Below are positions 10,526 to 62,983 of a stretch of DNA of 64,000 nt, piece by piece; the stretch's first letter is position 1; the number at the start of each line of letters is the position of its first letter. The translations under genes and the position numbers were made by a program. Origin of the DNA: an uncultured virus (IMG/VR IMGVR_UViG_3300011883_000001) (lineage: Duplodnaviria > Heunggongvirae > Uroviricota > Caudoviricetes > Schitoviridae); the IMG/VR virus record IMGVR_UViG_3300011883_000001. One strand, given 5' to 3'. The notes under the pieces are model-generated. The model made no database searches. It saw nothing but the letters and a program-made list of their open reading frames with translations, and had not been told where the DNA came from.

Positions 10526-10547
10526 AAAAAATCCTCCGAAGAGGATT
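10526..10547 (-). terminator. Intrinsic terminator
   Basis: Minus strand AATCCTC-TTCG-GAGGATT-TTTT. Confidence 0.8.
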
Positions 10548-25028: not shown

Positions 25029-25215
25029 TGCACTAGCCTTAATGAAACGTGGAGACACCAAAGACCTGTTCCACAATAATGTACTTATTCAGATTGTCTT
25101 TGATTATTCAGGAACATTTGCTATTGATGTATGTGATCCTGAAACCAAAGATAAGATTACACATTACAGCTCTAAATCCCTTAAAGAGTGTGTAGCTTTC
25201 CTAGAACGTTTTTAA
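25009..25215 (+). CDS. Hypothetical protein
   Basis: GAGG RBS; ends before a terminator. Confidence 0.7.
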   Translation: MMINLRDALALMKRGDTKDLFHNNVLIQIVFDYSGTFAIDVCDPETKDKITHYSSKSLKECVAFLERF

Positions 25216-25723: not shown

Positions 25724-25755
25724 AATATAAGGTTTTAATTTTACTTAGTAAAATT
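25724..25755 (-). promoter_or_regulatory. Sigma70-like promoter TTTACT-17-TATATT overlapped by a perfect inverted repeat
   Basis: -35 at 25752-25747, -10 at 25729-25724; AATTTTACT-T-AGTAAAATT at 25737-25755. Confidence 0.6.
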
Positions 25756-25769
25756 GCTAATTCCGATAC

Positions 25770-25804
25770 AAAATAAGAATCCCCTCATGTAGAGGGGATT
25801 TTTT
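25770..25804. terminator. Terminator downstream of the vRNAP gene (bidirectional shape)
   Basis: AAGAATCCCCTC-ATGTA-GAGGGGATTTTT. Confidence 0.8.
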
Positions 25805-28800: not shown

Positions 28801-31800
28801 ACCCTCATGGAATGCTTGAGGTTTAATCTGACTTCGTGCTTGTGTGAATGTCTTGTTTAACTCTGCATAGCTTAGAGATAAGTTACGATCATCATTAGCT
28901 CCTTGAGTAGCTGCATACAATAACTCAGTCACATAACGCTCACGCTCAGAGAAACTGAAACCATGAAGTACAGCTTCATCTGTGGTTGTGGTTTGATTAT
29001 GTGCAATAGCATCTGCCCATACAGATTCAGGATCTGAACTTAAACCAATAGAACTAAGTAAAGCATTATCCATACGATCTAAGATAGGTAGTGCAAACGA
29101 GTTCAAAACAGACTGTAAGTTAGAGTCAAAGTTAGTACCTGTACCATTGAGGTTCTGAAGAATCTCATTGGCATTCATACGTTTTACTTTGTCTGTAGCA
29201 TGTTTACGTGGAGCACCTAGTTCAGTACTAGCAGGTTGAATTAAACCAGCATAATCAGCAGTACTGTCATAGTTCTTAGTTAAAGCAACAGTATGAATCA
29301 TCAGAGCTTCTAAACCAGTGACTTCACCTTTAGCTAATTTAGCTGATGGCTTACCAAAGAAATTATTGAACAGGTTAGCTATGCTTTGCAGGAATGCTCC
29401 TAATCCCCAGGTACGTTTAGCTTTTACATGCATCTGGTTTATCAGACGAGCTACTTCTGGTTCAGAGAACACAGTAGCAATGAACTCATCTAAGCTAGAT
29501 ACAGCATATGCATTATCACCCTCTAACTTACCTTGATTAGATAGGAACTTCTTAAACTGACTACGTAAAGCTTCTAGTTCTTGAACTGCAGCTTTAGACT
29601 TAGGATTCTGTAAAGCAGTATGTGTAGCAGCATGTAGTAATTCATGAAGCACAATAGCAGGATCAAACTTACCATCTTGAGGAAGCAAGTAGATTACTGG
29701 CTTACCATTTTCATTTGTATTGATCCATCCATAACGACCTTTACGGAATTGCTCAATAGCTTTAGGAGAACTTGCATTTGCAATCTTAATTTCAAGTTGA
29801 TCAGGTAAAGCTTTCTTTACCAGGTTAAACATCTGACCTGAAAGTAGAGTACCTAAGTTACCTGAACTACGAGCTTGGTTTGTATCGTAAGCTAACGCAG
29901 AGAATAGAATGTTTTTATTTACTTCACCTTCTACATTGTTCAAGTAGAAATCTGCAGTATGCATATCTACATTAGACTGGATACGTTCCTGTACTTGTTT
30001 CTCAATTGGTTTAGATTCTTCAGCTACTCCTTGAGCTTCTAAACCAAGTACCTTATCTACAAGAGCAGCTTGTCCAAGTAATTCAGAAATCTTCTCTTTG
30101 CGTTGAGTCTCCAGTTGAGCAATACGATCAGTAATCTGTTTGTAATCACCTTCGGTAAACTGATACTCACCACCTTCAATACCATACTGGTTAAGGTACT
30201 TATAATCAGATAGAGAAATAAGTTTATTAATATCACGGTCATAAGCACTATTAAGTAACTTAAGAACCACATCGGAGAATGAAGCATTAACACCTAGTTT
30301 CTCTGCTAAACCATCAAGAGATTTAGTGAGAGTTTCTTTATTAGATTCAGTTAAGTTCTCGTCAATAGCGTAACGTTGAAGAGGCTTTAACGCACCTAAA
30401 GCAAAGTTCACGTTTAAGTCTGTATTAACCAAACTGTCTAGAGTTACTTGGTTTAATGATTTACCTAATTCACGTCCTTGACCCATCTTGGCATTCAATG
30501 CGTCATGGATGTTCATGGTTGCAAACTTACCTAGGTTAGCATGTGCAATATAAGCATCCTGAGAGTGAATAGCCATTGGTGTATTACGTACACCTGGAGC
30601 TTCAATTCCAACAGACTTTGTACCTTGTTCAATATGTGAAGTAGCTGATTCTTTAGGAGCAGCATTATTCACTGTACCATTAGGATTCAGATTACGAGTC
30701 TGTGTCTTACGAGAACCGAAGATATATAAGTCATTCATGTTATGAGGATCTTTATTCAGTCGTTTAAATGACTTGAACATTGGAATAGCAGACTCTTCAG
30801 TATTACTACTCTTAAGACCCATAGCTGTAGGGTAGCTAGGCATAACAGGACGTAACTCAATATGTAGCTGATCTAGCTGTTGTTTACTAATTCCTTCAAC
30901 AGATTTGTCTTCTACATCTTCTAAAGCTACTTGGATAGCATCCTCGTAGATTGGATTAAACAACTCATAACCAAAGTTAGCCAAAGCTGTTTTTTCATCA
31001 CGAGCTTGAACATACTCTGGATAAGCTTGAACAGTGAACTCATCTACAATAGTTTTAAGTGTTGACTGTAGACCAGTTAAAAAAGCTTTCTCCTGTTCGT
31101 AAGTAAATACTAGATCTTTAGGATTTGTCTCTAGACTTACTAGATCACCTTTGAAACCAGAGAGTTTAAGCAGACGGTTTAAGGATTGGATAACTGTCTT
31201 ATGTTCTACAGAGTTTGGTTCTACTTTTTCAAGCAAACCAATTACAGAATCTAAAACATCTCCTGCTACACCTTGAGCTGTAGATCGTCCACCTGCAGCA
31301 AAGTTAATTACTGTGGTTAAAGTCTTAGCACCTTTACGTTCACTAAACTTAGGGTGAAGAATCTTTAATTCAGTAACAACTGCTTTAATTTTCTCAGCAT
31401 CCTTACGTTCAGTATTTTTTGCTACATCAGTGAGAACTCGATCTAGAATCTTGGCATTGTGCTCATACATATCATCAGCCCCAGTATCTTTGTGCTGAGG
31501 AACAGTAGTGATACCGTCTGATTCTTTGTATAAACCACCAGCACCAGCAAGAGCAGGATTCAATGTATTCAACATTACCTGGGTTAAGAATGGACCGTTG
31601 GTTACACCATCAATCTCAATAGAAATATCAGAAGTAAACTTGGTTTCACCTGCTTGAAATGCATCACGGAATCTAGTCATATTTACTAGAGCTTTCAATG
31701 ACATTGCATTCATACCCATCTTGTCTACAGTATCAGCAATACGCTGTACATCCTTCTCTGTGAAGTCCTTACCATTTAGAACCTTAGACATAGAAGCCAA

Positions 31801-34800
31801 TACAGGTACACCATCACCTTTCAACATCCATTCAAGATACTGAGGAGCATAGTTTAAGATCTGTGTTTTATCAGCAGTTGTCTTAACGTTACCTGGCTCT
31901 AGATCCTCACTGTTTAACGCTACAGCTTGAATAAACTCACCTAGCTGAGTTACACCATTCTCGTTGATAAACAAGCTAGTATCACCATTTATAGCTGCTA
32001 CGATGGATGCTTTATCAATAGATACATCAACGATATGTTCTTTCAGGGAAACCATACCACGATGTAGCTTAGAAGCTACTGGGTTAACTGCGTTTACCAT
32101 ACCTGAACGTTGCTGTACCCATACCTCCTGTTGAAGATAGAAGTCACGAGCTAAACCATGTTTAGTAGTATTCAATAGATCTACTGCTTCTTCGTAAGCA
32201 CGGATATCACGATCAATAGCCTGGTTATTAGATTCAATACCTTCACGCTTCATAGCCTGTTTAGCTAAGAGAGCATCTCCAGTAACCTTGCCATACATAC
32301 GACCTAACAGTTCAGGGTAAGCTTGCAAAGCTGTATGTACTGAATGCATTCCAGTACTCACATTCCATTTTAACTGATGAGCATGTTCTAGAGCTTTCAC
32401 CTGAAACTCTGGTACTTGTGTACCTACAGCATCAATCGTTTTTTGAGTAACCAACTCTTTAGGTTTATTAATCTGGATTGGAGTATTCCACTGAGGTAAA
32501 CCAAAGACCTTACTGATTACACTCTTTGATCCACGTACAGCAGATAAAACCTTAGCTGAATTCTTGATAGGTTCAAACTTATTGTTGGTAGGGAGTTTCA
32601 CGAAAGTAAGACGTTTAGGAATCTCACGTGAACCTTCGTAGTCAATCTCAGCTTGTTCATTCGCAGCTACAATTGCCTGTGTGTATGATTCAATTAAGTT
32701 AGTACCTAAGACTACTTCTTGTAGATATTCATCACGAATGAGCATGTGTGTAGCAATATGACCTAGAGCTACAGCCAGTTTCTCTTTACGGGAAGCAGCT
32801 ACATCAGATGCAAACTGATAACCTAGAACTTGTACAGCTTTAGTACCCATAGACTGTGCAGCGTTGTTCTTGTATGTACCTACATCTTTCATACCATTGT
32901 AGACATGGGTAGGAATCTTGAAGGCATCAGTAAAGAACAGTTTCTTAGCTACATCTTCTTTAGAGGATAGCGTTGAACCATTCTCTGTAATCCAAGAGAA
33001 AGCAGATACAGTAATAGCATCCATCACATGAGGATCTAAGTAACCTACTTCATGCTTACCTTGTGTCTTGGTTTCAGTTACCAAGTATTTAGCAAAGTTC
33101 TTAAAGTCAGGAACAGATTCAGCATATCCATTCAATAGAACACCTGTATTCTGTTTACCAAATAAGAAGAACATTCGTGCTAATTCTTTAACTGCTTCAA
33201 CTTGTTGAGGTTCTAGTTCAGTACCTAACTTGTCAGCTGCTTCTTTAAGAAGTACTGCTTCAATCTCAGGAAGCTTCTTACCAGCAAACTCAGTGGTATA
33301 AGCGATACGGCGTGTACCTACAATAGTAGGTTTCACAGTAACAGCATCTTTAACCAAATTACGTTCAGCTAATGGCTTCTCACGTTCAATCTTACGCTGT
33401 GCTTCAAGCTCAGCATTAATTTCACTAATCTCACCAAAGGTAGAATCATATTCTTTGGTTGTATCCATATCACTGAATAGATCACTCAGTTCCTGATCTG
33501 TAATCTCTAAATCAGATGTTGAATATTCAAGATCATTTACAACCTCTTCTACTTTAGGTTCCGGAGAAGCTTCAATAACTTCTGTCTTGGTTTGCTGTGT
33601 ACGAGGTTGTTGCAGCTCAGCTACGGTATCTGAGATTTCAAGGATACGATCAAACATAGTTTGAGCTTCACCCGTTAAACCAAAGAACTTAGAGAACAAT
33701 CCTTTTAGTTTGTCATAGACAGTCGTATTACCTATAGAGATTTGCTTGAGCTGTTTGATTACTGGTTTCTCAGTTAAACCAACAGTGAAGATCTCAGCTG
33801 CGTTATCAACCATGTAGCTTAGACGTTCACGTACATGAGGATCTATATCAGCATTTGCAAGAAGGAAGTTCTTAATATCTTCTTGGATAGCTAAGATCTC
33901 TGCCTTGATTGGTACATATTTATCTTCTGGTTCATCTACCATTACTTTAGTACTGATAACGTGTCCTGAAGCCATATGACCAATTTCATGCAGCAAGATA
34001 TCTTCTGCAGTAACACCAGGATATTGTTCAACTAGTTTTTCTAAGTTGGAAACTACAATTGTATTCTTACCATAGAATGCACGTGCATCTACTGAAGCTA
34101 CATTTTTAGCTAGGTCTTTATCCTTTAACTTAGATGCATCATTGGTAAAAATGATCTTAGTACTTGGATTATATTCCAAGAAAATCTCAGCAAGTTTTTT
34201 ATAGCCTTGGGATGGAGCATTACTAAATAACTTATCTAAAACAGCTTTAGCTGTATAAACGGTTTCTGGTTTGAATCCATAGATAGAATCAGACTGTTGG
34301 GATTCTTTATTCCAAATACCATTACCATTATTTTCAACATAACCTTTACTTGTAAGATATGTAGCTACTTCACGTTCACCAATATTAAAAGTACGATTAC
34401 GATCAGATACCTTATCAGTAATTAAAGTTGCACCTGCAGAAATAGCTTTATCAATTTCAGCGAAGTCAGGTTTAACACGTCCAGCACGATTACCATTTAC
34501 ACTGATAAATACAACATCATCTTTTGAATAATCACCTGTATTAGCTTTACTTCTAAAGTCTTTAGCATACTGTTCTGTAGATGATCCTTTAGATCCTTTA
34601 CCAATAAACTTAGTAGCTTTATCTGCTTTAATTTGATCTTTAGCTAAGTAAGCTGATTTACCAGAAAGAATTATTTTTGTTTCTTCTTTCTTGTGTTGTG
34701 ATGGTTGATTTCCTGATTTAGCTTCCACGTTGGTACTTGAGTCTTTGGTAGATTTAGACTGAGTAGTTTTAGCTGCAGGCTTGGAAACAGTTTGAACAGT

Positions 34801-37509
34801 AGTTTTTGAATCATCTAGACCTTCCCATATATTTTCATCTGGATTAACTGGAGTATTCTTTGGAGTTTGTTTAGCTTTGCTTTGAACTTGTTGACGTTGC
34901 TGAGTCTGACCTTGCTCTGCTTGTTCTTGAGCAGTCTTCAGATCATTCTGAGGATTCAAGGAATCCATGGCTTGTTGCATACGATCAGCTGTAGGTTGGA
35001 TATCAGCACGATCTGTCTGAGCTAGAATGGTATCTACAGTAGCTTTTACTTTAGCAATCAGTTTAGCTTCCTGTTGGATAGCAGCTACAATATTAGTAGA
35101 GTCATTCTTCTGACCTGGAGCATAAGTAACATCTAAAGCAGCATTCTTGGTTTTAGCTTTACCTGTTAATGGTTCACCTTCATTGATTACCCACTTACCT
35201 TGCTCATTACGAATAACCTGTACAGTACCTCCAATAGATGTAGCCATCTCATAAGCTTGCTGTACTGCTTCAGCTTTTAAACCATGTGAATTGGCAAAGC
35301 GTGTAATGCCACGTAGAGCTAAACGTTGAGCATTAGTATCACCACGGACTACTGCATCACCAGCATCGTCTATATAGCTCATAACAGCTTTAGATTGGGC
35401 AGAACCATCAAGGATATCTTTAGATACCTTATCAATGGTTTGACTTAAATCATATTCCTGACGAGCTTCTGTGAGCGCACGAAGTACTTCTTTATCAGCA
35501 GATGAATAAGTAGTTGCGTTAGCTGCAGCTGTAAGTTCTTCAGTAGAGAATGTAGAAGGAGCAGATAAGATAGTAGAAGGGATAGCTGTAGGATTAACAT
35601 CAGAGGTATCTTTTAATACCTTGGATTTAGCCAGAGCATCTTTAGCAGCATTAAGATGTTTGTCATCATCTTCATACTTCTTACGAATAGCTGCTTCATC
35701 CATACTAGACATTAGTTGATCACGTGCAGTATAGACAGCATTCAGACGATCCAGTTCTACTTGATTTTCCTGGATAGCAGCTTGATCTCCTGCTTGGGTT
35801 GCAGCAGCTAATTCAGATTCAACCTGGGCTTTGTATTCATCATACTCAGTCTGATTGTCTAGAAGATCTACAACAAGCTCCATGGTTTCTTGAGAAGCAG
35901 AAAGCTTATCAACCATCTCTTGATAATTTACTTTGATCTCTTCGATCTTCGCTTGTGCTTGTTCAGGTTCTTTAATCTCTTCTACAGCTTTAGCAGCTTC
36001 CTGTGTCATACGTACAGTAGCAGCTTCAGCATTGAACTTAGGAGATTCAGGATTAGCTAATTCCTGTGTAGAAGTATTCTTGTCTAATTCTGGATTAGTC
36101 TTGATTGCTTCTTCAGTAGCTTTAGAAATAGCTTTAGCTTTAGCTTGTAAACCAGTACCTACAACTGCTTGACCTACTGCAGCTGGACCACCTAATGCAC
36201 CACCAATAGCGGCACCCATTACAGCAGCTTCACCCATACCTTGAGCATCAAGTGTAGGATCTAAGCTACCCCATTTAGATTCAATCTGTTGTTGGATTGC
36301 TTCTGTACCACCTTCAACTGCAGCTATTCCTGCAAGTCTAGAGAATGCCATACGTGCAGCAGATTTCTCTGCAGCTGTACCAACCTTGCTTGCTAAGCCA
36401 AGTGACTTACCTACACCTGCTCCTTTGATAGCTCCTTTAGCTACTACAGCTTCTGCATAGTTAGCAGCTGTGTATGCAGCAGTCATTCCTAGGATTCCTA
36501 GAGACTCTCCAGCAGTAGGTGTTCGTAATTCACGATCAGTAAATTGATCATGAGATTGGTTTTGAATACGTGCAGCATCAATAGCCAATGCAGGAGCAAT
36601 AGTATATGGATTGATATATGGAGCCATTGCAGCTGTTTCTTCAATCAGATAAGCAGGATTAGCTGCTAAACCTTTAGCCGTATCTTTAGCTGAATTCAAG
36701 AATGCTTTACCTTGGTTCTTAGCCCAAGTTAAATAATCACCTTGATCATAGGCATCCTGAGCATCACGTACTAACTTTTGGTTTTCTTTATCTGAAGTAC
36801 CATTCCAAGCTTTGTGACCTTGGTAAGCTTTCTCTGCAGAATGATCATACCAGTTACGTGCATTGAGATAACCAGCCTCTCCTTTCTGACGATTACCTGC
36901 CAGATATTCACCAAATCCTGCTACATGATCAGACCAGTTAAGACGTTGCTTTGCATATGTCTCTGAACCATCTTCATTGTAGAGAAGTTTATATTCATCT
37001 TGGCTTAGCTGATTGTCTTGTAAACGTTTACCTAAGAATGTCATACGCTCTTGCACATCACGCATATCCAGGTATTTACCTGAGTTCAGTGCAGCTTGAG
37101 GATTAGTACGTAATTGGTCTAGCTCTTGTTGATATTCAGCATTTCTCTTTTGATCTTGTAATTTAATGAATGCAGTTTGTGCAGCATCATCTACACCTTG
37201 ACGGTTAAGTGCAGCAACACCAGCTACAGTAGAACCTACAGCTTGTTCAGCTAATTCACCAAACGCTCCTGCAATTCTACGAGGTACGTTAACAGCTGCT
37301 TCAGTAAAACCATTCTCATTGAATTGAGCTGAGTAACGGTTATGTAAGTCAGTAGCTCCACTGTAATCATTTTGATATTGGTAGTTAGGTTGTCCTGTAG
37401 CTTTGGTGTAGTTGGATTGACCGTATGGAGTTACCGTTGTCTTTTGCTGTAGATTATTAGCAATCCGAGCAAAGGCATTAGCAACTTCATTATCTTTGTA
37501 TCCTGCCAT
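25819..37509 (-). CDS. Virion-encapsidated RNA polymerase (N4 gp50-like), 3896 aa
   Basis: Size; no Cys seen on reading; motif A EIDGVTNG, motif B RKGAK, motif C NIHDA; C-terminal DFTAKY..FINYD. Confidence 0.96.
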   Translation of the reverse strand: MAGYKDNEVANAFARIANNLQQKTTVTPYGQSNYTKATGQPNYQYQNDYSGATDLHNRYSAQFNENGFTEAAVNVPRRIAGAFGELAEQAVGSTVAGVAALNRQGVDDAAQTAFIKLQDQKRNAEYQQELDQLRTNPQAALNSGKYLDMRDVQERMTFLGKRLQDNQLSQDEYKLLYNEDGSETYAKQRLNWSDHVAGFGEYLAGNRQKGEAGYLNARNWYDHSAEKAYQGHKAWNGTSDKENQKLVRDAQDAYDQGDYLTWAKNQGKAFLNSAKDTAKGLAANPAYLIEETAAMAPYINPYTIAPALAIDAARIQNQSHDQFTDRELRTPTAGESLGILGMTAAYTAANYAEAVVAKGAIKGAGVGKSLGLASKVGTAAEKSAARMAFSRLAGIAAVEGGTEAIQQQIESKWGSLDPTLDAQGMGEAAVMGAAIGGALGGPAAVGQAVVGTGLQAKAKAISKATEEAIKTNPELDKNTSTQELANPESPKFNAEAATVRMTQEAAKAVEEIKEPEQAQAKIEEIKVNYQEMVDKLSASQETMELVVDLLDNQTEYDEYKAQVESELAAATQAGDQAAIQENQVELDRLNAVYTARDQLMSSMDEAAIRKKYEDDDKHLNAAKDALAKSKVLKDTSDVNPTAIPSTILSAPSTFSTEELTAAANATTYSSADKEVLRALTEARQEYDLSQTIDKVSKDILDGSAQSKAVMSYIDDAGDAVVRGDTNAQRLALRGITRFANSHGLKAEAVQQAYEMATSIGGTVQVIRNEQGKWVINEGEPLTGKAKTKNAALDVTYAPGQKNDSTNIVAAIQQEAKLIAKVKATVDTILAQTDRADIQPTADRMQQAMDSLNPQNDLKTAQEQAEQGQTQQRQQVQSKAKQTPKNTPVNPDENIWEGLDDSKTTVQTVSKPAAKTTQSKSTKDSSTNVEAKSGNQPSQHKKEETKIILSGKSAYLAKDQIKADKATKFIGKGSKGSSTEQYAKDFRSKANTGDYSKDDVVFISVNGNRAGRVKPDFAEIDKAISAGATLITDKVSDRNRTFNIGEREVATYLTSKGYVENNGNGIWNKESQQSDSIYGFKPETVYTAKAVLDKLFSNAPSQGYKKLAEIFLEYNPSTKIIFTNDASKLKDKDLAKNVASVDARAFYGKNTIVVSNLEKLVEQYPGVTAEDILLHEIGHMASGHVISTKVMVDEPEDKYVPIKAEILAIQEDIKNFLLANADIDPHVRERLSYMVDNAAEIFTVGLTEKPVIKQLKQISIGNTTVYDKLKGLFSKFFGLTGEAQTMFDRILEISDTVAELQQPRTQQTKTEVIEASPEPKVEEVVNDLEYSTSDLEITDQELSDLFSDMDTTKEYDSTFGEISEINAELEAQRKIEREKPLAERNLVKDAVTVKPTIVGTRRIAYTTEFAGKKLPEIEAVLLKEAADKLGTELEPQQVEAVKELARMFFLFGKQNTGVLLNGYAESVPDFKNFAKYLVTETKTQGKHEVGYLDPHVMDAITVSAFSWITENGSTLSSKEDVAKKLFFTDAFKIPTHVYNGMKDVGTYKNNAAQSMGTKAVQVLGYQFASDVAASRKEKLAVALGHIATHMLIRDEYLQEVVLGTNLIESYTQAIVAANEQAEIDYEGSREIPKRLTFVKLPTNNKFEPIKNSAKVLSAVRGSKSVISKVFGLPQWNTPIQINKPKELVTQKTIDAVGTQVPEFQVKALEHAHQLKWNVSTGMHSVHTALQAYPELLGRMYGKVTGDALLAKQAMKREGIESNNQAIDRDIRAYEEAVDLLNTTKHGLARDFYLQQEVWVQQRSGMVNAVNPVASKLHRGMVSLKEHIVDVSIDKASIVAAINGDTSLFINENGVTQLGEFIQAVALNSEDLEPGNVKTTADKTQILNYAPQYLEWMLKGDGVPVLASMSKVLNGKDFTEKDVQRIADTVDKMGMNAMSLKALVNMTRFRDAFQAGETKFTSDISIEIDGVTNGPFLTQVMLNTLNPALAGAGGLYKESDGITTVPQHKDTGADDMYEHNAKILDRVLTDVAKNTERKDAEKIKAVVTELKILHPKFSERKGAKTLTTVINFAAGGRSTAQGVAGDVLDSVIGLLEKVEPNSVEHKTVIQSLNRLLKLSGFKGDLVSLETNPKDLVFTYEQEKAFLTGLQSTLKTIVDEFTVQAYPEYVQARDEKTALANFGYELFNPIYEDAIQVALEDVEDKSVEGISKQQLDQLHIELRPVMPSYPTAMGLKSSNTEESAIPMFKSFKRLNKDPHNMNDLYIFGSRKTQTRNLNPNGTVNNAAPKESATSHIEQGTKSVGIEAPGVRNTPMAIHSQDAYIAHANLGKFATMNIHDALNAKMGQGRELGKSLNQVTLDSLVNTDLNVNFALGALKPLQRYAIDENLTESNKETLTKSLDGLAEKLGVNASFSDVVLKLLNSAYDRDINKLISLSDYKYLNQYGIEGGEYQFTEGDYKQITDRIAQLETQRKEKISELLGQAALVDKVLGLEAQGVAEESKPIEKQVQERIQSNVDMHTADFYLNNVEGEVNKNILFSALAYDTNQARSSGNLGTLLSGQMFNLVKKALPDQLEIKIANASSPKAIEQFRKGRYGWINTNENGKPVIYLLPQDGKFDPAIVLHELLHAATHTALQNPKSKAAVQELEALRSQFKKFLSNQGKLEGDNAYAVSSLDEFIATVFSEPEVARLINQMHVKAKRTWGLGAFLQSIANLFNNFFGKPSAKLAKGEVTGLEALMIHTVALTKNYDSTADYAGLIQPASTELGAPRKHATDKVKRMNANEILQNLNGTGTNFDSNLQSVLNSFALPILDRMDNALLSSIGLSSDPESVWADAIAHNQTTTTDEAVLHGFSFSERERYVTELLYAATQGANDDRNLSLSYAELNKTFTQARSQIKPQAFHEGDWSTATPQEQQAAQAKWNYLFKITANGDHLARFTSMVLGNESVFNTVNVRPEKDQSKPNNMYEQLVQFINQALENIGLMFVGAKANQKLGERTQSVVKNLAKVDLKHRNFITNKIEEQLAKADNYVDEKIKAGRNKLAEKIDDSKLSDSKNAYVGLAADITAEAARGNLMNRLDNGKELFMSRTGKLGFWGELVNEIAENSPFKDVIEKLMRHVKLQSQTKEQLKEQTIKNILSTFKNGGKDLTRPQKEALSYVMKADVQSLLGFMSVQEIQNAYNTPTFLRAKIKTIETQLKGLDVNAHVLIGRSEDLARYMITGLGAKNNDLAKNATLIAMHAGTKHKIPQDKVNTQVVELVDQLVSLYAIQYTPAKEKELIKEVMAEEVSGDINGIDTLLKFHAGLASEARDELFKENPLSVTKGFVPEITNPHHEIKFATTEEEALKLKNQYFREVKSLEPNTLVQGQTVRMFLSEDAGQTRLVSGALELVSKNPKGTPVKVAVQQILPSIQTKQSAYKDTAYDPFKDAEASALIPQYDLEGNISGFSYEMSGASRDVLLQRNNDFSELIGLYSATNFNKMTVPETNKLVVDALVQEYNTNHDKNPRKYLEVSHKSSDPELRKMWDLLPKETRDYIQSQMGERKLYVPKDVLLPVFGFQKYSVMQGFDKERSDQNLYEKLYTTVFKILFQSNARTYGSRFERGMQEAVAVSKNIIVIRNVRTLVMNILSNTFLLQAHGASLTDIMKDSIVAVRAGLQHRKDSALLTAKRQMLYTGVGNKAELEQEVLRLEQSIARNPLSEFINEGMLPSIVDDVAMNADDDYGFKSALERKFEKQLNKIPKPLRRTAEYMMVSPNTPLYEFLNNTTQLSDFTAKYVMYKYYTNTAKDKLSHDKAIKMASDNFINYDMPTSKGMQYLNDMGIVMFTKYNLRIQKALFRLLERKPARALLQALVMHHGTDIPFGIDPIVWNQMGFPLRDGALILPDALGEPIPVQLLGSVL

Positions 37510-37526: not shown

Positions 37527-37552
37527 AAAATAAGCACGTAATATATACGTGC
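37527..37552 (-). terminator. Hairpin/terminator upstream of the vRNAP gene
   Basis: GCACGTA-TATAT-TACGTGC-TTATTTT on the minus strand. Confidence 0.55.
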
Positions 37553-37591
37553 CTATCCTAGCAGAAGTAAACTTACAGCTAAACTAATGGT

Positions 37592-42532: not shown

Positions 42533-42556
42533 AAAAAAGGGAGCTTACTGCTCCCT
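42533..42556 (-). terminator. Intrinsic terminator
   Basis: AGGGAGC-AGTAA-GCTCCCT-TTTTT on the minus strand. Confidence 0.8.
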
Positions 42557-42572
42557 AGTTTACACTTAATGA

Positions 42573-47032: not shown

Positions 47033-49240
47033 TTACTGTGAGTTAGCTTGTTTTGAAGCAACGTTAGCTTTTAATGATTCCTTAGTCAAGTCTGTTTGAT
47101 TCTTAAGTAGACTTTGATTTAAAGAAGATTGCTGTTTCAACTGTTCCTTCTGCATTTCTGCTTGATGTTTCACACGTTGCAGCTCTAACTGTTCTTCGTG
47201 CTCAATACCATCTGCTTTCTTGTAGAAGTCCAGATTATTCTTGTCTGTAGTAGATTGCATGTTTGCTGCACGAGCTTCTTCAACACCAACCTTCGCACTT
47301 TGAACACCAGCTTTAGCATATGCTTCTTGAGCTTGTGCGTTTAACAGTTCAGCTTGTGCTTGCTTAACAGCAACATCAGCTTGAGCCATAGCTTGTTGGA
47401 TTGGATCAGGTTGTGGTTCAAAGTTCTCTACTGCACGAGCAAGATCAGGAATCTTATACAGACGAGCAATCTTAGCTAAGAGCATCTGAGTGATAGACGT
47501 ATCCAAAGTATTACCAATGGTTTGAGTCATCATGCTAAGAATCTGAGCTTTCTGCGAATCTTCTTCTGGTGTAGAGATATTGATACGTAGGTCAAAGTCA
47601 CCTCGTAAATCATCTCGTCTAATAGGAACGAATTGATCATTGGTAACACGTACCACTTCCTCTTCTTCAAGGAACTGAGCATTCATAGAAATAAACTTAC
47701 GAGCTACCTCTACTAAACCATTACCAATACGTCTAACGATACCCATCTCTCGTTTACTAGCTGCATCCATAGCTCCTCTAACAGCTTCTGCTGTTTGACC
47801 CATGTTTACACCTGATACACCAGACTGTGCGAATGCACGTACACCAGTGAGTGATTCAGCATCTGTATTCACCAGGTTTAATAAGAATGGAACTGTTTCT
47901 GGGATTTGAGGGAACGACTGAGTAAAGACGGTATTACGAATATCTCCTGAGCTTGGGTTGAATTCAAAATCTTGACCATTTCTAAATTTGTTAAAGTTAA
48001 CAGAGTCCAAAGCACCTTTAGCAAAACCAGTTTGACCAACAGCATTCTTAGCAACTAAGTCAATTACAGCTCTGAGTACAGCACCTTGGATACTTTGGTT
48101 ATCCTTCAATAACTCTGCATCTGGTTCCCCGTAGAGTGAATCCTTGATAGGCATAAAAGGAATAAAGACAAAAGGAAATTTCTTGTCTGGGTATGGATTT
48201 TCCTCTAAACGAATTACGGTATCGTTAAGCCAGGTACACACAATAGGGCGAGCAATGCCAGTGCCATCAATATCATAATATCCCCAATATTCGTAGCAGT
48301 AGATCTTTTGTCTGGCTTCGTCTTGGAATTTGAAGTTGCTGGACTCTGAGGTACGTTGATAGTCTGAGACTGTTGTTGAGTTGACTGATGCGCTTTGTAC
48401 ATTGACGTTCTCCAAGTTCTTATATCGTCCATCTCTCTTCAGGTCAGACATGGAAGTTTCAAACTTATAGATGATGAAGTTGGCTTTGTTAATATCACCG
48501 TTACAAGTAGGATCTACATAAACATCATCAAAATGACAGACTTCTACTGTAGGATGATTCCTGATTACTTTGACAGATTCCTGTTCTTCAGTACCATCTT
48601 GGTACACACGAATAGGTTGTCCTTGTTCTTGACTGTACTGGATACTTAATTTTAAGTCTTCTGGTAATGTTTCAAACAGATCAGGATCTTGTTGTAACTG
48701 AGCCATGATCTCTTGGAGTTTTGGTTCTATAGATGGATCTACTACAGCAAGGTATTTAGGTACTTGCTCTTTAACTTTCTCTTCAACCACAGTCCAACCA
48801 GTACGTAGAATAGCTGTACCCTCATCTACTAGAGCACGAACCATAGTATCTACAAACTTAATCTTATCAATCTTAGTATCAAACTGATTATTTAAAATGA
48901 GTTCATTTTGTTGAGCAGGTTTAACATCTTCCCAGGTCACAGGGTTAATACTGAATAAATCTGAAGATGCTAAAACTACTTCACTAAGGGATGAATATCT
49001 CCACTCATTTTGTTTACGGATTAAACGTGGAGCAATAGAACTTTTATTTGGAATGGCTTGAGGTTTATATTTACCCGTCAATTTAAGAGCATCTAACCAG
49101 TCAGTTATTTTACTGACTTGTCCTTTGTGATATTCCTCTGATGCTTGTAAATCAGCCTTGAGATTTAAGACTGTAGGTTCATTTTTCCAGTTAGTTAGTT
49201 TCTCAGAACTAGCTAATGGAATCTCTTGATTAGTATCCAT
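47033..49240 (-). CDS. Portal protein (N4 gp59-like)
   Basis: LTNWKNEPT, PRLIRKQNEWRY, YEYWG, ASKRE. Confidence 0.95.
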   Translation of the reverse strand: MDTNQEIPLASSEKLTNWKNEPTVLNLKADLQASEEYHKGQVSKITDWLDALKLTGKYKPQAIPNKSSIAPRLIRKQNEWRYSSLSEVVLASSDLFSINPVTWEDVKPAQQNELILNNQFDTKIDKIKFVDTMVRALVDEGTAILRTGWTVVEEKVKEQVPKYLAVVDPSIEPKLQEIMAQLQQDPDLFETLPEDLKLSIQYSQEQGQPIRVYQDGTEEQESVKVIRNHPTVEVCHFDDVYVDPTCNGDINKANFIIYKFETSMSDLKRDGRYKNLENVNVQSASVNSTTVSDYQRTSESSNFKFQDEARQKIYCYEYWGYYDIDGTGIARPIVCTWLNDTVIRLEENPYPDKKFPFVFIPFMPIKDSLYGEPDAELLKDNQSIQGAVLRAVIDLVAKNAVGQTGFAKGALDSVNFNKFRNGQDFEFNPSSGDIRNTVFTQSFPQIPETVPFLLNLVNTDAESLTGVRAFAQSGVSGVNMGQTAEAVRGAMDAASKREMGIVRRIGNGLVEVARKFISMNAQFLEEEEVVRVTNDQFVPIRRDDLRGDFDLRINISTPEEDSQKAQILSMMTQTIGNTLDTSITQMLLAKIARLYKIPDLARAVENFEPQPDPIQQAMAQADVAVKQAQAELLNAQAQEAYAKAGVQSAKVGVEEARAANMQSTTDKNNLDFYKKADGIEHEEQLELQRVKHQAEMQKEQLKQQSSLNQSLLKNQTDLTKESLKANVASKQANSQ

Positions 49241-49270
49241 AAAGCAACCTTTAGCGTTAGACTGCTTTGG

Positions 49271-49276
49271 ATTATA
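49271..49276 (-). promoter_or_regulatory. -10 box (TATAAT) of a probable late promoter for the portal operon
   Basis: TATAAT about 30 nt upstream of the portal ATG; weak -35. Confidence 0.5.
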
Positions 49277-49277
49277 G

Positions 49278-49306
49278 TTTACTTATTAATAAATAAGCTA
49301 TATAGT
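49278..49306 (+). promoter_or_regulatory. Sigma70-like promoter TTTACT-17-TATAGT
   Basis: Exact 17-nt spacer; faces a + strand terminator about 70 nt downstream. Confidence 0.55.
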
Positions 49307-49312
49307 TTCCTT

Positions 49313-49377
49313 GCGTGATTAGTTCCTTCTTTGATAAACCCTCTACAAGTTTTCCGTGCTTATAGAGGGTTCTTTTT
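49313..49377 (+). ncRNA. Candidate ~65-nt small RNA with an anti-SD seed
   Basis: Promoter upstream; 5' GCGUGAUUAGUUCCUU; 3' hairpin AACCCTCTA..TAGAGGGTT-CTTTTT; no ORF. Confidence 0.5.
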
Positions 49378-49379
49378 AT

Positions 49380-50126
49380 TTAGACCCAACCTCCTCGTTG
49401 AAAATTAGATTGAGCAATACTGGTTTTATTTCCTGCCAGGTTTTCTTTTAACTGTCTGCATTCTTCATTAAATTTACTGGACCAGTTATTACCTTCATGG
49501 AACATACTTCGTCCAATTGATTCTGCACCTGCAGGGTTATACATTTTTGAAGCTACAAAATAACAAAGAGCATTCAAGTAAGTATTAGGTAAACGTACTT
49601 CAGTAGTTATTGCTGCATTCATAGAAACAGGAATAGCATCTGCTTTATAGACTATTTCATATATACCTTCTTCAGGTATAAATCCGAATAATAACTCATC
49701 AGAAGAAGGAGTAGATATAAGGCTAGGAGCAGTTGATACGTGTACATTATGGTAGACATCCCGAATGGTATTTTGTGTAGGAGATTCACCGTTTAAAGTA
49801 CGAACCGTACCATCAGGTAATTTAATACGAAGTAGTTCTAAAATATCTCCTTTAAATGGATTATCTGAATCCAGGATATAACCATTAGGGTTCTTACTCT
49901 GAGCGTTGTCACAAGTTAGAAAATAACGTTGAATATCTGAAGTCACATTTAATTTCAGAGTGTCTTCACGAATAACAAAGAGTTCATATAATTTAGATAA
50001 ACCAAGATTAATAAGTCTATTAATTCGTGGTTTAACTTCATTCCTCAATGACCCTTCATCATCTACCAGATCATAAGTGAATATCTCACTGGCAACTAAT
50101 GCTTCATAGATTTTGGATAGTTTCAT
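49380..50126 (-). CDS. Head-tail adaptor/virion protein (N4 gp67-like)
   Basis: INLGL..LY..F; LP..YLNALCYFVAS; C-terminal NF.RGGWV. Confidence 0.82.
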   Translation of the reverse strand: MKLSKIYEALVASEIFTYDLVDDEGSLRNEVKPRINRLINLGLSKLYELFVIREDTLKLNVTSDIQRYFLTCDNAQSKNPNGYILDSDNPFKGDILELLRIKLPDGTVRTLNGESPTQNTIRDVYHNVHVSTAPSLISTPSSDELLFGFIPEEGIYEIVYKADAIPVSMNAAITTEVRLPNTYLNALCYFVASKMYNPAGAESIGRSMFHEGNNWSSKFNEECRQLKENLAGNKTSIAQSNFQRGGWV

Positions 50127-50133
50127 TTAATAC

Positions 50134-51750
50134 CTATACAATGTAATTGGAGATAACAGATGTATTCGTTGAACTAGAGCTTGCTTCCCAGATATTAGAC
50201 TGAACGTTATATTCCATGGTTTGTGTTGACGATGGGTATATCAATCTCATATTTGCCAGCATTGAAATAGTGTCAATGAAATCATCATGTTTAGATTTTA
50301 AACCACTTGCTGAAGCAAGTCTTAATTCCTCCATACATTCAATCATAGGAGCTTCTTCTTGGAGTTCTTCAGGGAAGAACATATTACCTGCACTAAACCA
50401 AGGAACAACGACATAGAAGCGTTGTAGCTTATCTATGCTTGGTCTAATACCAGGTCTATTGGTATTTCCTGCTGAAGCAAAGTTAAAGTAAATTCTACGT
50501 CTTTGCTGTTCTTTTCTAAGCCAAGGAATAAAACCTTCTTGCTGACCTGTTACTTCAATCCCTACAGAAAGAGGGTTATATCTCTGACATAAGGTGAAGA
50601 GATCTTCTACATTACGATCCATAGTTTGTCGTTTACAAATACCATCTACGTAATAGATATATCCTGCATGGTTTACTGCCCATACGGAAATCACAGAGAA
50701 ATCTCCTGATTTCTTATCTGTAGTAGCAAAGTCAGTTGTCACGTAGAAATTGTATGAACCCATATCTTTCATTAGGTCTTTACGAGAATACCAGTTGATA
50801 TCTGCAATACTAATCAGACGATCTTCATCGCTCATAATTCGTAGCATCAATTCTTGGTTAAAACCTTGCAGCATACCTGCAGACTTAGCTTCCTCATATT
50901 TACGCTTAACGAAGTCATAAGTGAAACGATCTTCCCACGCACCTCTAAACTCTTCACGTGTACACGGAAATCGTTCACATACTGGATAACAGTTGACTGC
51001 CCATGCACCACTTTCCACTGCTTCATATAAGGGATCTCCAGCATTGAAGGGAGTACCTGACCAGATAATCTTGGATTTAGTTGGATGCATTGCATGGTCA
51101 ATAGCTTTATAGACTGTGTCTTTGATTGCATTGATACAGGTCTGAGAACGTGCATCTTCATCTGAAACCAAGTCATCTAGGATAGCTAATTGTGGGCGTT
51201 TACCCATCTCCTTCACACCACGTACACCCGTTTGTGCACCATAACCTTTTACAATAAATTGCTTACCTGAAGCATTCTTAAACTCCCAACGAATGTCTGT
51301 GAATTTCCAGTGAGGAATCATCTTAGTTAAGAAAGATGAGTTTTCAATACGGAACTGTAAGTTCTTCCGCATGTTCTTCACACCATTCTCAATGGAGTCT
51401 GATACATAGATAGCCAGATCTACTTGACCAAAGTTAGGTAATTCACCAAAGACAGCTAAGAATAAAATAAGATACTCACCTAACACAGTAGTTTTAGCTG
51501 CACCACGAAAAACCATGTTAGCAATCTTAGGAACATCAGCTCTGGCAATCTGGTCCAACATCTTAAGATGTAGTACAGGTGTAATGTTTTCTTCGCCTTC
51601 TGCTCCATTGACTAGCTTAATAAAGTTTACAAATGCATAAGCAAACTCACTAGGTTTGTAGTAAGCATCATCTCCATAACTAACCTGGTTTAACCATTTG
51701 TCTACTGACTGTTTAATTAAACCAAGAGAATTCAATTCACTCTGGATCAT
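50134..51750 (-). CDS. terL: Terminase large subunit
   Basis: [31 protein letters not shown]. Confidence 0.95.
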
Positions 51751-53543: not shown

Positions 53544-56500
53544 ATGCCTTTAATAAATAAAGATGCAATTCTAGAACCATTTGACTTTGATAAAGTGGAC
53601 TTCACTTTATTACCTAAAGCAACCTTACAGTCACCTGGTATTATCCTGGTTGGTGAAGGTTTGTCTGTAACACCTGAAGGTATTCTTTCAAAGACTCATT
53701 ACAACCTTGAGGACTTAAAAGATAAACCATTAGCTCGTACAAATTTAGAGGTATTCTCCAAAGAAGAAACCAATACTGCACTTCAAAATCTTAAAGAATA
53801 CACAGATCAAGAAAATGCTGCTTTAAATGCTGCAACTTCAGCTGCTATTGCATCCTTATCTGATTCTACAGATGCTGCTGTACTTGCAGCTAAAAACCAT
53901 ACTGATAGTTCAATCAGTAGTTTAACAGACTACACCAACACAGAGATTCTTAATTTAAAGCAGTATACTGATGATGGGATTGAAGCTCTTCGTGTTAGTT
54001 CCAGTACTGCTACTGAAGCTTTACGTACTGAAATTCAAAATGATTTAGTAGAGTTACAGTCAACTATTGAAGATGAATTTGTTGAAGTACGTTCAGAAGT
54101 TGCAGCTTCTTTTACAGCTTCAGATCAGAATCTTCAACAAACAGCTACACAGTTACTTGCTGACTATGAAATCAAGATAGCAGCTCACAGCAGTCTTACG
54201 GATAATCCTCATGCAGTTACTAAAGCTCAAGTTGGTTTAGGTGAAGCAGATAATACCTCTGATATTGCTAAACCAGTAAGTACAGCACAGCAAGCAGCTT
54301 TAGCTCTTAAACTAGATAAAACAGCAAATGCTGCGAGTGCTACTAAACTACAAACTTCTCGCACAATCTCGTTAACAGGAGGTGTTACAGGTAGTGTTAA
54401 TTTTGATGGTAGTGCTAATGTTTCTATAGCTACTACAATTACAGGTTTAGGTGTTGCTAATGGTATTGCTACATTAGACTCTAGTGGGCAAGTACCTTCT
54501 ACTCAATTACCCTCATATGTAGACGATGTATTAGAGTACGTGAATGTTGCAGCATTCCCGACTCCAGGTGAATCAGGCAAAATCTATGTAGAAACCACAG
54601 GGAATACTACCTATCGTTGGAGTGGTTCAGGGTACACTAAAATTACGTCTGGAGAAGTATCATCTGTTGCAGGTAAAACAGGTGTTGTTACTCTAACTAA
54701 AACGGATGTTGGCTTACCTAATGTAGATAATACTGCTGACTCTGCTAAGAATGTAGCATCTGCTGCTAAGTTAACAACTGCACGTATACTTACAGTAGGG
54801 CGTACAGGTAAAACCTTTGATGGTTCAGCTAATGTTGCATGGACTGCAACAGAGGTACTACCAACTGCTACATCAGGACAGTTCCTTAAATTTGATGGAA
54901 CTAACTGGATTGCTGGAGCAGACAACAACACAACGTACAGTACGATGCTTCAAGACGAAGCTACTACAGGTACAGCAACACAAGACAGACTGATCAGTGC
55001 CAGTGTCTTAAAGAGTGCTATTCAGTATCATTCACCTATCCCTCCTACCTTCACAGGAACAGCTACAGCAGGTTTAGTACCTCCACGTGTAGGCTCAGTA
55101 TCAATTAAGTACTTACGTGAAGATGGTACATGGCAGGTTCCTACAAACACTACCTACCTACCTATGACAGTGTCAGAGTATACGGCAGGCAGTAGTAACC
55201 TTAGTAGGCTTATTTCAGCTAATGTCTTAAAGGATGCTGTACTGCTTCATGGTAAAGCACTTGAGAGCATTCAGGGCAATGCAGCCACAGCAAGCAAGCT
55301 GCAAAATCCAATCAAGATTAATGGTAAGGACTTCGACGGTTCAGAAGACTTTGACATTATCACTGGTTCATCGGCGTTTATTGGTTCCGTGTCCTGGTTT
55401 AATGGCAACCCTATGCGCTTACCTGATGGGTATGCGCAAGGTAACGGGCAAATCTATAATCGTGCTGATTATCCCTTCATGTGGGAAGCTATCGAACGAG
55501 GTCAGTTTGAAGCTATCGACGATGCAACATGGTTAGCTGATCCGAGCCAACGCGCTAAATATTCATTAGGAGATGGCTCTACTACGTTCCGTATGCCTGA
55601 TTTAAATGGTGTTCAGCCTGATTCTTTAAATGCGCCTTTCCTACGTGGTAAAGGTGCATTTGCGGTAGGTACAGTGTTAGGGGATGCGATTCGTGACATA
55701 ACCGCCAGGGTTATTACTGTCCCACACACTATGCATGTAGGTAAGATCAACCATGATTGGACGGCTTATGATGCTGCCAGTATAAATTGGGCAGACACTT
55801 CAGGTAACAACTTAAAATTAGAAGAAAACAATGGCCTCTCTGCCAAAACTTTTCAGACAAACTTTAGAGCATCAAACGTAGTCCCTACCGCCACTGAAAA
55901 CCGTCCTATTTCCGCCGTAGGTATGTGGATTATCAAGGTACGCGGAGACACTGTAGCTTCACCAGAAAGCCAGCCAGCGACACTGATGCACAATGAATTT
56001 CACGGCAATCAGATCATCCATGGTGACATGATCGTTACTGGTGAAGTGCGTTTTGGGGAAGCTAGCAAAGTAGAGGTAAATTTACCTATTGGTTTTGTTG
56101 AATGGTACAACGGCCCACGTACTCATATCAGGATTGGTACACTTCCATCTGACGGTCAGCTACTAAAGCGTGCGGATTACCCTGCACTTTGGGCTGAGAT
56201 TGAACGTGGTGCATTTGCATCTGTCTCCGAAACAGACTGGTGGGCTACTCCACATAATCGAGGTTCATATTCATTAGGTGATGGGTCCACAACATTCCGA
56301 ATGCCTGATCTTAACGGTGTGCAGGAAGGTTCATTTAAACGTAATTTCTTGCGTGGTGCAGATATAGATGCACTTGTAGGTAAAATGCGTGGTGATGCTA
56401 TCCGCGACATTCAAGGCGGCTTTACTGCTTCTGTTCCTGCTGGTCATGGAAATTACCGTACAGGTGCTTTTTCTGGATCATGGGGGTTGTCCACATCAAG

Positions 56501-57071
56501 CACCTCTGATCCAGCTGTTTACGAATTCCAAGCAGCGGTGCAGGGCGGTAAATACATAGAAGGATCGAGATACGGCTATTACTTTAGAGCTTCTGATGTA
56601 GTACCTACAGCAGAAGAAGTACGTCCAGTCAATGCGATGGGTGTGTGGGTTATTCGTGTAAGTGGTGGCGTACCGAATAACACTACTGGCACAGCAGCAG
56701 GGATAGATACCAACACATTTAACGGTCATCAAACCATGAATGCTGGTGCGTCTATTAATGGCGGGTTGACAGTTGATGGTAAAGAAGTTGTACGTAAGAG
56801 TGCAATTACAGCTGTATTAAGTGCTAGCGGTACACGTCAAAAAGGAGTTGTTTACTATAACGGCCCAAACTTACGAATAGTAATGCTTTATGTGGGGCAA
56901 GGTAGTAATAGTGGTGATACTGGTATTAAGGTAAATGATGTTTTTACAGCAGGAGCTAATATGCCGAACGCGCACTATTCATTGACGGCCCTTATTCCAC
57001 CTAATACCGCATATTCTTTTACAGGGCCGGCATCGGCTACCTATTGGGCATGGACGGAGACAGATATATGA
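53544..57071 (+). CDS. Long tail fibre with two tail-collar-like modules
   Basis: NPHAVTKAQVGL, NAASATKL repeats, 2x GDGSTTFRMPDLNG..GDAIRDI. Confidence 0.9.
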   Translation: MPLINKDAILEPFDFDKVDFTLLPKATLQSPGIILVGEGLSVTPEGILSKTHYNLEDLKDKPLARTNLEVFSKEETNTALQNLKEYTDQENAALNAATSAAIASLSDSTDAAVLAAKNHTDSSISSLTDYTNTEILNLKQYTDDGIEALRVSSSTATEALRTEIQNDLVELQSTIEDEFVEVRSEVAASFTASDQNLQQTATQLLADYEIKIAAHSSLTDNPHAVTKAQVGLGEADNTSDIAKPVSTAQQAALALKLDKTANAASATKLQTSRTISLTGGVTGSVNFDGSANVSIATTITGLGVANGIATLDSSGQVPSTQLPSYVDDVLEYVNVAAFPTPGESGKIYVETTGNTTYRWSGSGYTKITSGEVSSVAGKTGVVTLTKTDVGLPNVDNTADSAKNVASAAKLTTARILTVGRTGKTFDGSANVAWTATEVLPTATSGQFLKFDGTNWIAGADNNTTYSTMLQDEATTGTATQDRLISASVLKSAIQYHSPIPPTFTGTATAGLVPPRVGSVSIKYLREDGTWQVPTNTTYLPMTVSEYTAGSSNLSRLISANVLKDAVLLHGKALESIQGNAATASKLQNPIKINGKDFDGSEDFDIITGSSAFIGSVSWFNGNPMRLPDGYAQGNGQIYNRADYPFMWEAIERGQFEAIDDATWLADPSQRAKYSLGDGSTTFRMPDLNGVQPDSLNAPFLRGKGAFAVGTVLGDAIRDITARVITVPHTMHVGKINHDWTAYDAASINWADTSGNNLKLEENNGLSAKTFQTNFRASNVVPTATENRPISAVGMWIIKVRGDTVASPESQPATLMHNEFHGNQIIHGDMIVTGEVRFGEASKVEVNLPIGFVEWYNGPRTHIRIGTLPSDGQLLKRADYPALWAEIERGAFASVSETDWWATPHNRGSYSLGDGSTTFRMPDLNGVQEGSFKRNFLRGADIDALVGKMRGDAIRDIQGGFTASVPAGHGNYRTGAFSGSWGLSTSSTSDPAVYEFQAAVQGGKYIEGSRYGYYFRASDVVPTAEEVRPVNAMGVWVIRVSGGVPNNTTGTAAGIDTNTFNGHQTMNAGASINGGLTVDGKEVVRKSAITAVLSASGTRQKGVVYYNGPNLRIVMLYVGQGSNSGDTGIKVNDVFTAGANMPNAHYSLTALIPPNTAYSFTGPASATYWAWTETDI

Positions 57072-57532: not shown

Positions 57533-57549
57533 ACCAAGATAAAAAGAAG

Positions 57550-57575
57550 AGAGGACTGCTAAAGTCCTCTTTTTT
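57550..57575 (+). terminator. Intrinsic terminator
   Basis: AGAGGACT-GCTAA-AGTCCTCT-TTTTT. Confidence 0.85.
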
Positions 57576-59900: not shown

Positions 59901-59963
59901 TATATACCTAATTACTCTTAAATGACTCTACAACCTTTAAAAATTTAGTTAAGGAACTATCCA

Positions 59964-62549: not shown

Positions 62550-62560
62550 TGGAATTAATT

Positions 62561-62983
62561 ATGCGTATCATTGATAAATTACAAGCAGCTATTGAATTAG
62601 CTCAAGGCTATCGTAAAGAGATTGTTGACTTTGAATCTCTTAAAGATAAAACAGTATTGGAAGTTTATTCTACTGAAGACGTCATTGAGATTCTTACTGA
62701 TGATGGTTTGTATTACCTGGAACATATTCAGGATTGTTGTGAACAAGTCTACGTAGAATCCATTGTAGGTGATCTACAATCCCTTGTAGGTCAAACAATT
62801 CTATTAGCTGAAGAATCTACAAATTCAGAAGGAGAACCTTCAAATGAATGGCAAGATTCATTTACCTGGACATTCTATAAATTAGCTACCATTAAAGGAT
62901 ATGTAGATATTCGTTGGTATGGTACGTCTAATGGTTATTACTCTGAATCAGTGACATGTAGGAAACTTACAGTAGGGCGTTAA
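62561..62983 (+). CDS. Conserved phage protein (HxQDCCE...NGYYS family); alternative start 62549
   Basis: HIQDCCEQVY, WTFYKL.TIKG..IRWYG.SNGYYSE. Confidence 0.8.
   Translation: MRIIDKLQAAIELAQGYRKEIVDFESLKDKTVLEVYSTEDVIEILTDDGLYYLEHIQDCCEQVYVESIVGDLQSLVGQTILLAEESTNSEGEPSNEWQDSFTWTFYKLATIKGYVDIRWYGTSNGYYSESVTCRKLTVGR

Follow-up and report, generated by a model that had tools for sequence, protein, structure and literature searches.

A short transcription unit that contains no ORF and runs against its neighbouring genes is probably real in the gap between the gp67-like gene and the portal gene of an N4-like (Schitoviridae) phage. The DNA analyzed is a single stretch of 64,000 nucleotides, referred to here as the window. 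The unit is composed of a sigma70-type promoter, a short 5' region, and an intrinsic terminator, all on the + strand, and the chance that it functions in the window is put at a little over one half. Action in cis by this conserved ORF-less unit, rather than in trans as an RNA against Shine-Dalgarno (SD) sequences, is favoured over all alternatives, although the confidence placed in it falls somewhat short of even.

Gene setting and elements of the gap

The window contains a 3896-aa ORF (25819-37509), which is the size of a virion RNA polymerase. Its portal matches 510 phage records by tblastn, including N4-like portals, with the best matches in Acinetobacter phages At2, nACB1, and XC38 at 60-62% identity. 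The features of the junction are listed in Table 1. An earlier note, made from the letters of the window, had placed an opposite-strand unit without an ORF among - strand late genes. Both neighbours of the gap are indeed - strand late genes, and no + strand ORF fits inside 49313-49377. A small peptide was considered and rejected; the sole frame within the unit begins at GTG 49315, is 16 codons long, lacks an SD sequence, and by eye has no counterpart in the relatives. Rfam returned 0 matches for the whole window at gathering scores. In E-value mode over 49150-49480, the best Rfam match was RAGATH-7, with 17.7 bits against a threshold of 111.8.

Table 1. Features of the gp67-like/portal gene junction, in window coordinates.
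Feature	Position	Strand	Remarks
Portal gene	47033-49240	-	phrog_1216, E 1e-225; downstream of the gap
Intergenic gap	49241-49379		139 bp; between the gp67-like gene and the portal gene, both - strand late genes
TATAAT	49272-49277	-	likely -10 of a portal late promoter that has no -35; back-to-back with the + strand -35
-35-like hexamer TTTACT	49278-49283	+	TTGACT or TTGACA at the same position in relatives (10 of 10 gaps)
Palindrome TATTAATA	49284-49291	none	inside the spacer; common to the nearest lineage
-10-like hexamer TATAGT	49301-49306	+	17 bp after the -35; TAATAT, TATTAT, or TACTAT in relatives, spacing 17
Predicted single-stranded 5' part GCGUGAUUAGUUCCUUCUUUGAUA	49313-49336	+	unpaired in the centroid fold; start near 49313 predicted from the -10
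Terminator hairpin	49337-49371	+	9+4 pairs with one C.A mismatch; then CUUUUUAUUU
U-tract CUUUUUAUUU	49372-49381	+	abuts the stop codon of the - strand gene 49380-50126
gp67-like virion structural gene	49380-50126	-	phrog_2125, E 5e-39; stop codon adjoins the + strand terminator
Large terminase	50134-51750	-	precedes the gp67-like gene

The hexamers TTTACT and TATAGT are present where the earlier note had put them. Measured against a sigma70-type promoter (hexamers near TTGACA and TATAAT, 16-18 bp apart), TTTACT-17-TATAGT matches 9 of 12 positions, and the promoters at the same place in the relatives match 9-10 of 12. Taken alone, this score is ordinary. A 7-kb scan contains 16 such sites against 22.8 expected in shuffles, and shuffling the gap gives an equal match in 14% of cases. 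At 48570-48597 on the + strand, antisense inside the portal gene, lies a stronger promoter-like site, TTGACA-16-TACCAT (10 of 12); a transcript from this site would also end at the 49377 terminator.

The hairpin followed by a U-tract that ends near 49377 is likewise present as described. It has the form of an intrinsic (Rho-independent) terminator on the + strand, with a stem-loop of about -16 kcal/mol and the U-tract immediately after it. The + strand fold has a z of -2.5, and 4 of 200 shuffles fold equally well. A simple terminator scan missed this hairpin, as its loop limit of 3-8 nt is unsuited to a stem interrupted by a mismatch. On the - strand, the same sequence forms 14 continuous pairs including one G.U, with a z of -4.6. 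The - strand version is the more stable of the two (-19.5 versus -16.3 kcal/mol; G.U versus C.A mismatch), which hints at selection on the late-strand RNA. The tail after the stem on that strand is UUUAUCAAAG, which is weaker than the tails of the window's other - strand terminators. The late-strand terminators at 37530-37560, 42540-42560, and 10520-10545 have clear - strand U-tracts, unlike the hairpin at 49356.

To the right of the late block, a 1175-aa tail-fibre-like gene (53544-57071, + strand; phrog_6921 and others) is followed by a strong + strand terminator at 57545-57575. Because of this gene, the + strand genes on that side of the window are not all early.

Conservation of the probable unit and of the likely portal promoter

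The order of gp67-like gene, gap of 124-151 bp, and portal gene is common to three lineages. Lineage 1 is the window. Lineage 2 is metagenomic (L004-L010, L012, L013, and L017) and holds the nearest relatives found in IMG/VR and metagenomes, with a portal 75% and a gp67-like protein 46% identical at the amino acid level. Lineage 3 is the Acinetobacter clade, which includes At2, nACB1, XC38, and three IMG/VR contigs. No close relative was found among genome contigs, and the phage collection contained only a 147-nt coding match at 77% identity. A contig 97.6% identical to the window is present in a public DNA run, so closer relatives exist outside the searched collections. This contig has 22 differences over 48900-49800, which are small numbers, and its sole difference within the gap is 49309 C>A, between the -10 and the predicted start. 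A contig from a second run has 4 differences in 48900-49365 and 0 in the gap. The public sequencing runs found to contain the stretch include no RNA run.

Ten related gaps were scored (L012, L007, L009, L010, L014, L015, L016, L018/XC38, L001/At2, and L002/nACB1), and these are related to one another and not independent samples. Hexamers and U-tracts were compared across lineages by script and by eye; a MAFFT alignment of the unit across lineages was not good enough to count covariation. Conservation in relatives was a check that the earlier note had proposed, and for the promoter and the terminator it holds. The best antisense promoter in all 10 gaps is TTGAC(T/A)-17-TA(A/T/C)TAT, 37-46 nt from the portal ATG, and the U-tract on the antisense side is present in all 10 and in the window. 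Across six representatives, the 12 hexamer positions are 0.81 identical and the 17 spacer positions 0.34. The hexamers and their spacing are kept while the spacer is randomised, which is the pattern expected from selection on a sigma70 promoter. It is this conservation in relatives that places the antisense promoter above chance. The window promoter is the most degenerate of the set, with a hexamer identity to the relatives of 0.58-0.75.

The hairpin is located directly after the gp67-like stop codon in every relative, and its stems show compensatory changes. The tail on the gene strand differs by lineage, being UAGUUACG in the nearest lineage and UUUUUGUUU in the Acinetobacter clade. A gene-strand U-tract is found only in the six Acinetobacter-clade gaps, where the element looks like a bidirectional terminator.

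The gap could also be read as making no functional + strand RNA at all. It would then consist of a bidirectional terminator of the terminase-gp67 operon and a portal late promoter, the hexamers would be by-products of symmetry, and any transcript would be noise. This reading is judged somewhat unlikely. It agrees with the classic gene-strand terminator found here in At2, nACB1, XC38, and three IMG/VR relatives, with the stronger - strand hairpin of the window, and with a promoter score that is ordinary for the gap in a region where promoter-like sites are no commoner than in shuffles. Symmetry-derived bidirectional promoters are, in addition, ubiquitous in bacteria according to the available text of two papers (PMC12825309, PMC10268837). 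Noise, however, would not preserve the hexamers and an exact 17-bp spacing while the spacers randomise, and the nearest lineage, whose UAGUUACG contains no gene-strand U-tract, nevertheless keeps the hairpin and the antisense U-tract.

The earlier note had described the unit as divergent from the portal promoter, and this description stands, as the - strand TATAAT (49277..49272) is conserved in the nearest lineage. The - strand block ACTATAATCCAA, which includes TATAAT, is common to the window and L012, L007, and L009, while the L010 copy has one base different, upstream of TATAAT. The block is kept although the gp67-like protein is only 46% identical in that lineage. The two predicted start sites of the window are back-to-back and about 48 bp apart, and relative to the portal promoter the antisense -10 occupies about -41..-36. 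The Acinetobacter clade has a gene-strand ATGACA-18-GATAAT, the -10 of which overlaps the antisense -10 in a bidirectional-promoter layout. Given this shared AT-rich hexamer and the position at about -41..-36, conservation of the hexamers could instead serve the gene-strand promoter, which is a point against the unit. The palindrome TATTAATA is shifted by 1 nt relative to the neighbouring hexamers in the nearest lineage. A repeated late-promoter element was considered and rejected, TATTAATA and ACTATAAT being absent from the window's other late gaps.

CsrA binds GGA motifs, some of them in hairpin loops. The earlier note offered, as an alternative, a CsrA/RsmA-binding element on the - strand RNA with three ANGGA motifs, one in the hairpin loop. 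The three motifs exist (CACGGA in the loop, plus GAAGGAAC and CAAGGAAAC), and the nearest lineage also has a GGA in its loop (CUCGGAAAG or CUAGGAAAG). By eye, the Acinetobacter clade has no loop GGA and the other two motifs are unconserved in the nearest lineage, which leaves the loop GGA as the only shared motif, and in the nearest lineage only. This weak alternative is considered extremely unlikely.

The 5' region and its possible targets

The earlier note had read the RNA as a late-expressed translational repressor acting through its 5' end. The pairings that it quoted do exist. At the early gene 62561, GGAATTAATTATGC (62551-62564) forms 14 consecutive pairs with the 5' end, 3 of them G-U, and the pairing with AAGGAACTA (59952-59960) at gene 59964 is literally correct. 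To place these pairings, the segment 49313-49337 was used as a query in a duplex scan against 68 translation starts of the window, each from -25 to +15. The best duplex is the 62561 site at -19.2 kcal/mol, an energy that 13% of 300 dinucleotide shuffles and 10.7% of 300 natural 25-mers from the window also attain. The comparison with shuffled controls that had been proposed thus places the matches at the named SD and AUG sites at chance level, and repression through them is not upheld. At -10 kcal/mol or lower, 32 of the 68 starts are bound against a mean of 20.6, and this count is reached by 2% of shuffles and 5% of natural 25-mers. The raised count is attributed to the generic complementarity of UCCUU to AAGGA ribosome binding sites in a phage of 38% G+C. 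The description of the RNA as late-expressed has no basis. No late activator is required where a promoter has a -35 element.

Conservation of the 5' region follows a different pattern from that of the signals around it. The region differs between the three lineages and is not conserved in the manner of a trans-sRNA seed. In the nearest lineage, the promoter and the hairpin are almost invariant, whereas variation within the gap peaks in the approximately 22 nt that separate the hairpin from the -10. Conservation of the 5' region is seen only within the Acinetobacter clade. The proposed targets are no better conserved. Of 5 related genomes searched, 1 contains a homologue of the 62549/62561 gene, and the 4 Acinetobacter-clade genomes searched lack it. 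The start of the homologue in the nearest relative, paired with the antisense RNA of that phage, reaches only -5.1 kcal/mol and is not complementary. A search of 50,697 phage records yielded no homologue of gene 59964. The true start of the ORF listed from 62549 is probably ATG 62561. The homologue in the nearest relative begins with the same ATGCGTAT; the relatives of this gene are mostly in Bacillus SPO1-like phages.

The Acinetobacter clade contains a 17-nucleotide sequence, GGAATGACAACCAATCA on the gene strand, that is invariant in six phages whose DNA is only 64-80% identical (L001:2352-2500, L002:2353-2500, L003/L018, and L014-L016). It is the only invariant run of at least 12 nucleotides in 1074 aligned columns, 900 of which are coding. 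It follows closely after the terminator, would occupy about +5..+25 of the antisense RNA, and contains the gene-strand -35-like ATGACA. With up to 3 mismatches allowed, each of 4 genomes searched carries a single copy of the sequence. Exact matches number 43 in 596 billion bases of prokaryote genomes, against about 70 calculated for chance, and 0 of the 43 are in Acinetobacter. In viral contigs, 4 of 6 matches are known relatives, and the other 2 are next to tRNA genes in an unrelated phage. Of this block, the window retains only fragments (GGAAC...AATCAC). An sRNA seed, the -35 region of a bidirectional promoter, and a protein site are the candidates for its role. Because the constraint on the 5' region is opposite in the nearest lineage and in the Acinetobacter clade, no seed is common to the whole group.

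Small RNAs of the Hfq type combine an unpaired 5' region with a terminator hairpin that is preceded by a U-rich stretch and followed by a poly-U tail. The predicted RNA has this layout, which suits a trans-acting sRNA whose 5' end pairs with the SD and start regions of phage or host mRNAs and represses their translation. The existence of the quoted pairings, the 32 of 68 starts bound at -10 kcal/mol or lower, and an invariant GGAATGACAACCAATCA within the 5' part of the predicted RNA in the Acinetobacter clade all agree with such a role. Nevertheless it is regarded as improbable, given a best duplex that shuffles and natural 25-mers equal, a 5' region that is unconserved between lineages and hypervariable in the nearest, a first target that does not pair in the nearest relative and is missing from four related genomes, and a second target without homologues in the phage records. 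GGAATGACAACCAATCA is also single-copy, and its prokaryote matches are at chance level with none in Acinetobacter. A broader proposal, of a family of regulatory RNAs of about 55-65 nt in one N4-like subclade, would combine a host-type promoter and terminator with a lineage-specific seed (GGAATGACAACCAATCA in the Acinetobacter clade) and would set the timing of the late phase through host or phage mRNAs; it is rated as unlikely. What remains of the earlier reading overall is an independent unit divergent from the portal promoter, and what does not remain is anti-SD repression, for which the pairing is at chance level.

Proposed role in cis and comparison with known systems

The favoured role in cis comprises three effects that can be predicted from the arrangement of the signals. 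RNA synthesis would start near 49313 from TTTACT-17-TATAGT and end about 65 nt later at the intrinsic terminator that touches the gp67-like stop codon. The first effect would be competition between the antisense and portal promoters, lasting until the late activator tips the balance to the portal promoter. Since the + strand -35 abuts the - strand -10, the two promoters are interdigitated and would be mutually exclusive, with one polymerase bound at a time. Such exclusion, in which one polymerase binding event precludes the other, is described for interdigitated bacterial promoters in the available text of PMC12825309. Second, the terminator would stop antisense transcription and any + strand read-through before the late genes; because it touches the stop codon of the gp67-like gene, antisense transcription would be halted before the coding sequence. 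Third, any late mRNA that extends past the weak - strand terminator would pair with the RNA in perfect complementarity, and the duplex could direct RNase III cutting, as with lambda OOP. In the nearest lineage, a variable 5' part between an invariant promoter and hairpin fits a cis role that needs no particular RNA sequence.

The same junction carries a gene in much of the family. Eighty N4-like loci were taken, and 12 were dropped because they had too little upstream DNA, leaving 68. In 40 of these 68 other loci, the long ORF closest to the portal on its upstream side is divergent. The sampled loci include L020-L091 and L092:29027-29449. Near-duplicates were left out of the Pfam set, which consisted of 36 of 46 divergent ORFs; 24 of the 36 are dUTPase, 3 holin, 1 HNH, and 8 nothing or other. 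In phage LUZ7, ORF83 (dUTPase) is located on the + strand between the portal gp82 and gp84. Because a divergent gene, usually dUTPase, is present in most N4-like loci sampled, the junction normally carries a + strand unit, and in the window's subclade this unit appears to be reduced to a promoter, about 40 nt, and a terminator.

A relic is one way to account for such a reduction. The promoter and terminator would have belonged to a deleted divergent gene (dUTPase in most N4-like phages) and would no longer be needed. The prevalence of dUTPase at the junction (24 of 36 divergent ORFs, with a divergent ORF in 40 of 68 loci) is consistent with this, as is the lack of a dUTPase homologue in the window by tblastn, where the best E is 1.4. 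Several dUTPase-bearing relatives also have an antisense TACAAT, a -10-like motif, just beyond the portal start, although no homology to the dUTPase promoters could be demonstrated. Decay comparable to that of the spacers would be expected of a useless relic, but the hexamers, their spacing, and the antisense U-tract persist where the gp67-like proteins are 46% identical, and the relic is considered quite improbable.

The cis role would resemble lambda OOP in its layout. Lambda OOP promotes the RNase III-dependent decay of cII mRNA, according to the available text of PMC12197685. The window RNA would be similar in being short and non-coding, in having a sigma70 promoter and an intrinsic terminator of its own, and in running against neighbouring genes, and the layout of the window fits complementarity to the end region of a convergent mRNA. 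Unlike that of OOP, its overlap would be confined to the intercistronic hairpin plus no more than 2 nt of the stop codon, outside coding sequence, and depends on read-through of the weak - strand terminator. The window phage also differs in being virulent and N4-like.

DicF is a phage RNA that acts against a ribosome binding site. P22 sar and the c4 RNA of P1 and P7 are anti-RBS phage RNAs as well (PMC12197685, available text). The pairing of a small phage RNA with a ribosome binding site, as in sar, c4, and DicF, is the mechanism that the earlier note had proposed; unlike in those RNAs, the pairing in the window is not above chance and is not conserved.

The regulation of N4-like phages has mostly been viewed through three RNA polymerases. 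A conserved promoter-terminator unit without an ORF, set against the portal late promoter, is a compact and testable case of another kind. If the proposal is true, the timing or insulation of late genes in a virulent phage may rely on the binding of host polymerase or on a short antisense RNA, and the usual dUTPase slot may be reducible to its control signals. For annotation, the lesson is that targeting should not be concluded from an anti-SD match in AT-rich phage DNA.

Transcriptomes are so far the source of the small RNAs and antisense units in this family (LUZ7, and LIT1 as cited there), and these come without a mechanism in the available text of PMC9163698. The same text describes long-read transcriptomics of LUZ7. 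In these data, late promoters are sigma70-like, the opposite strand accounts for about 20% of late start sites, and middle transcripts run antisense through late cassettes. Small non-coding RNAs are made late in infection by N4-like phages (PMC9163698, available text). In the available text of the literature on sRNAs in Schitoviridae and on Acinetobacter N4-like transcriptomes, nothing was found on the gp67-portal gap. The LUZ7 unit with ORF83 resembles that of the window as a + strand unit at the same gp67-like/portal junction, but it encodes a protein, and the U-tract of the LUZ7 hairpin is on the late strand. The LUZ7 sRNA1-3 map to a different locus, between orf69 and orf70 (PMC9163698, available text).

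The window differs from bacterial bidirectional promoters in that its predicted start sites lie about 48 bp apart and share no -10; only the Acinetobacter clade shares a -10. The available text of PMC9163698 also describes four bidirectional terminator regions in LUZ7, in which a hairpin between an A-tract and a T-tract ends transcription both ways. The window terminator differs in that it is good in one direction only. Elsewhere in the window, hairpins flanked by A- and T-tracts at 8810-8839, 25040-25080, and 25740-25790 have the look of bidirectional terminators; two are located between convergent genes and one after the vRNAP gene.
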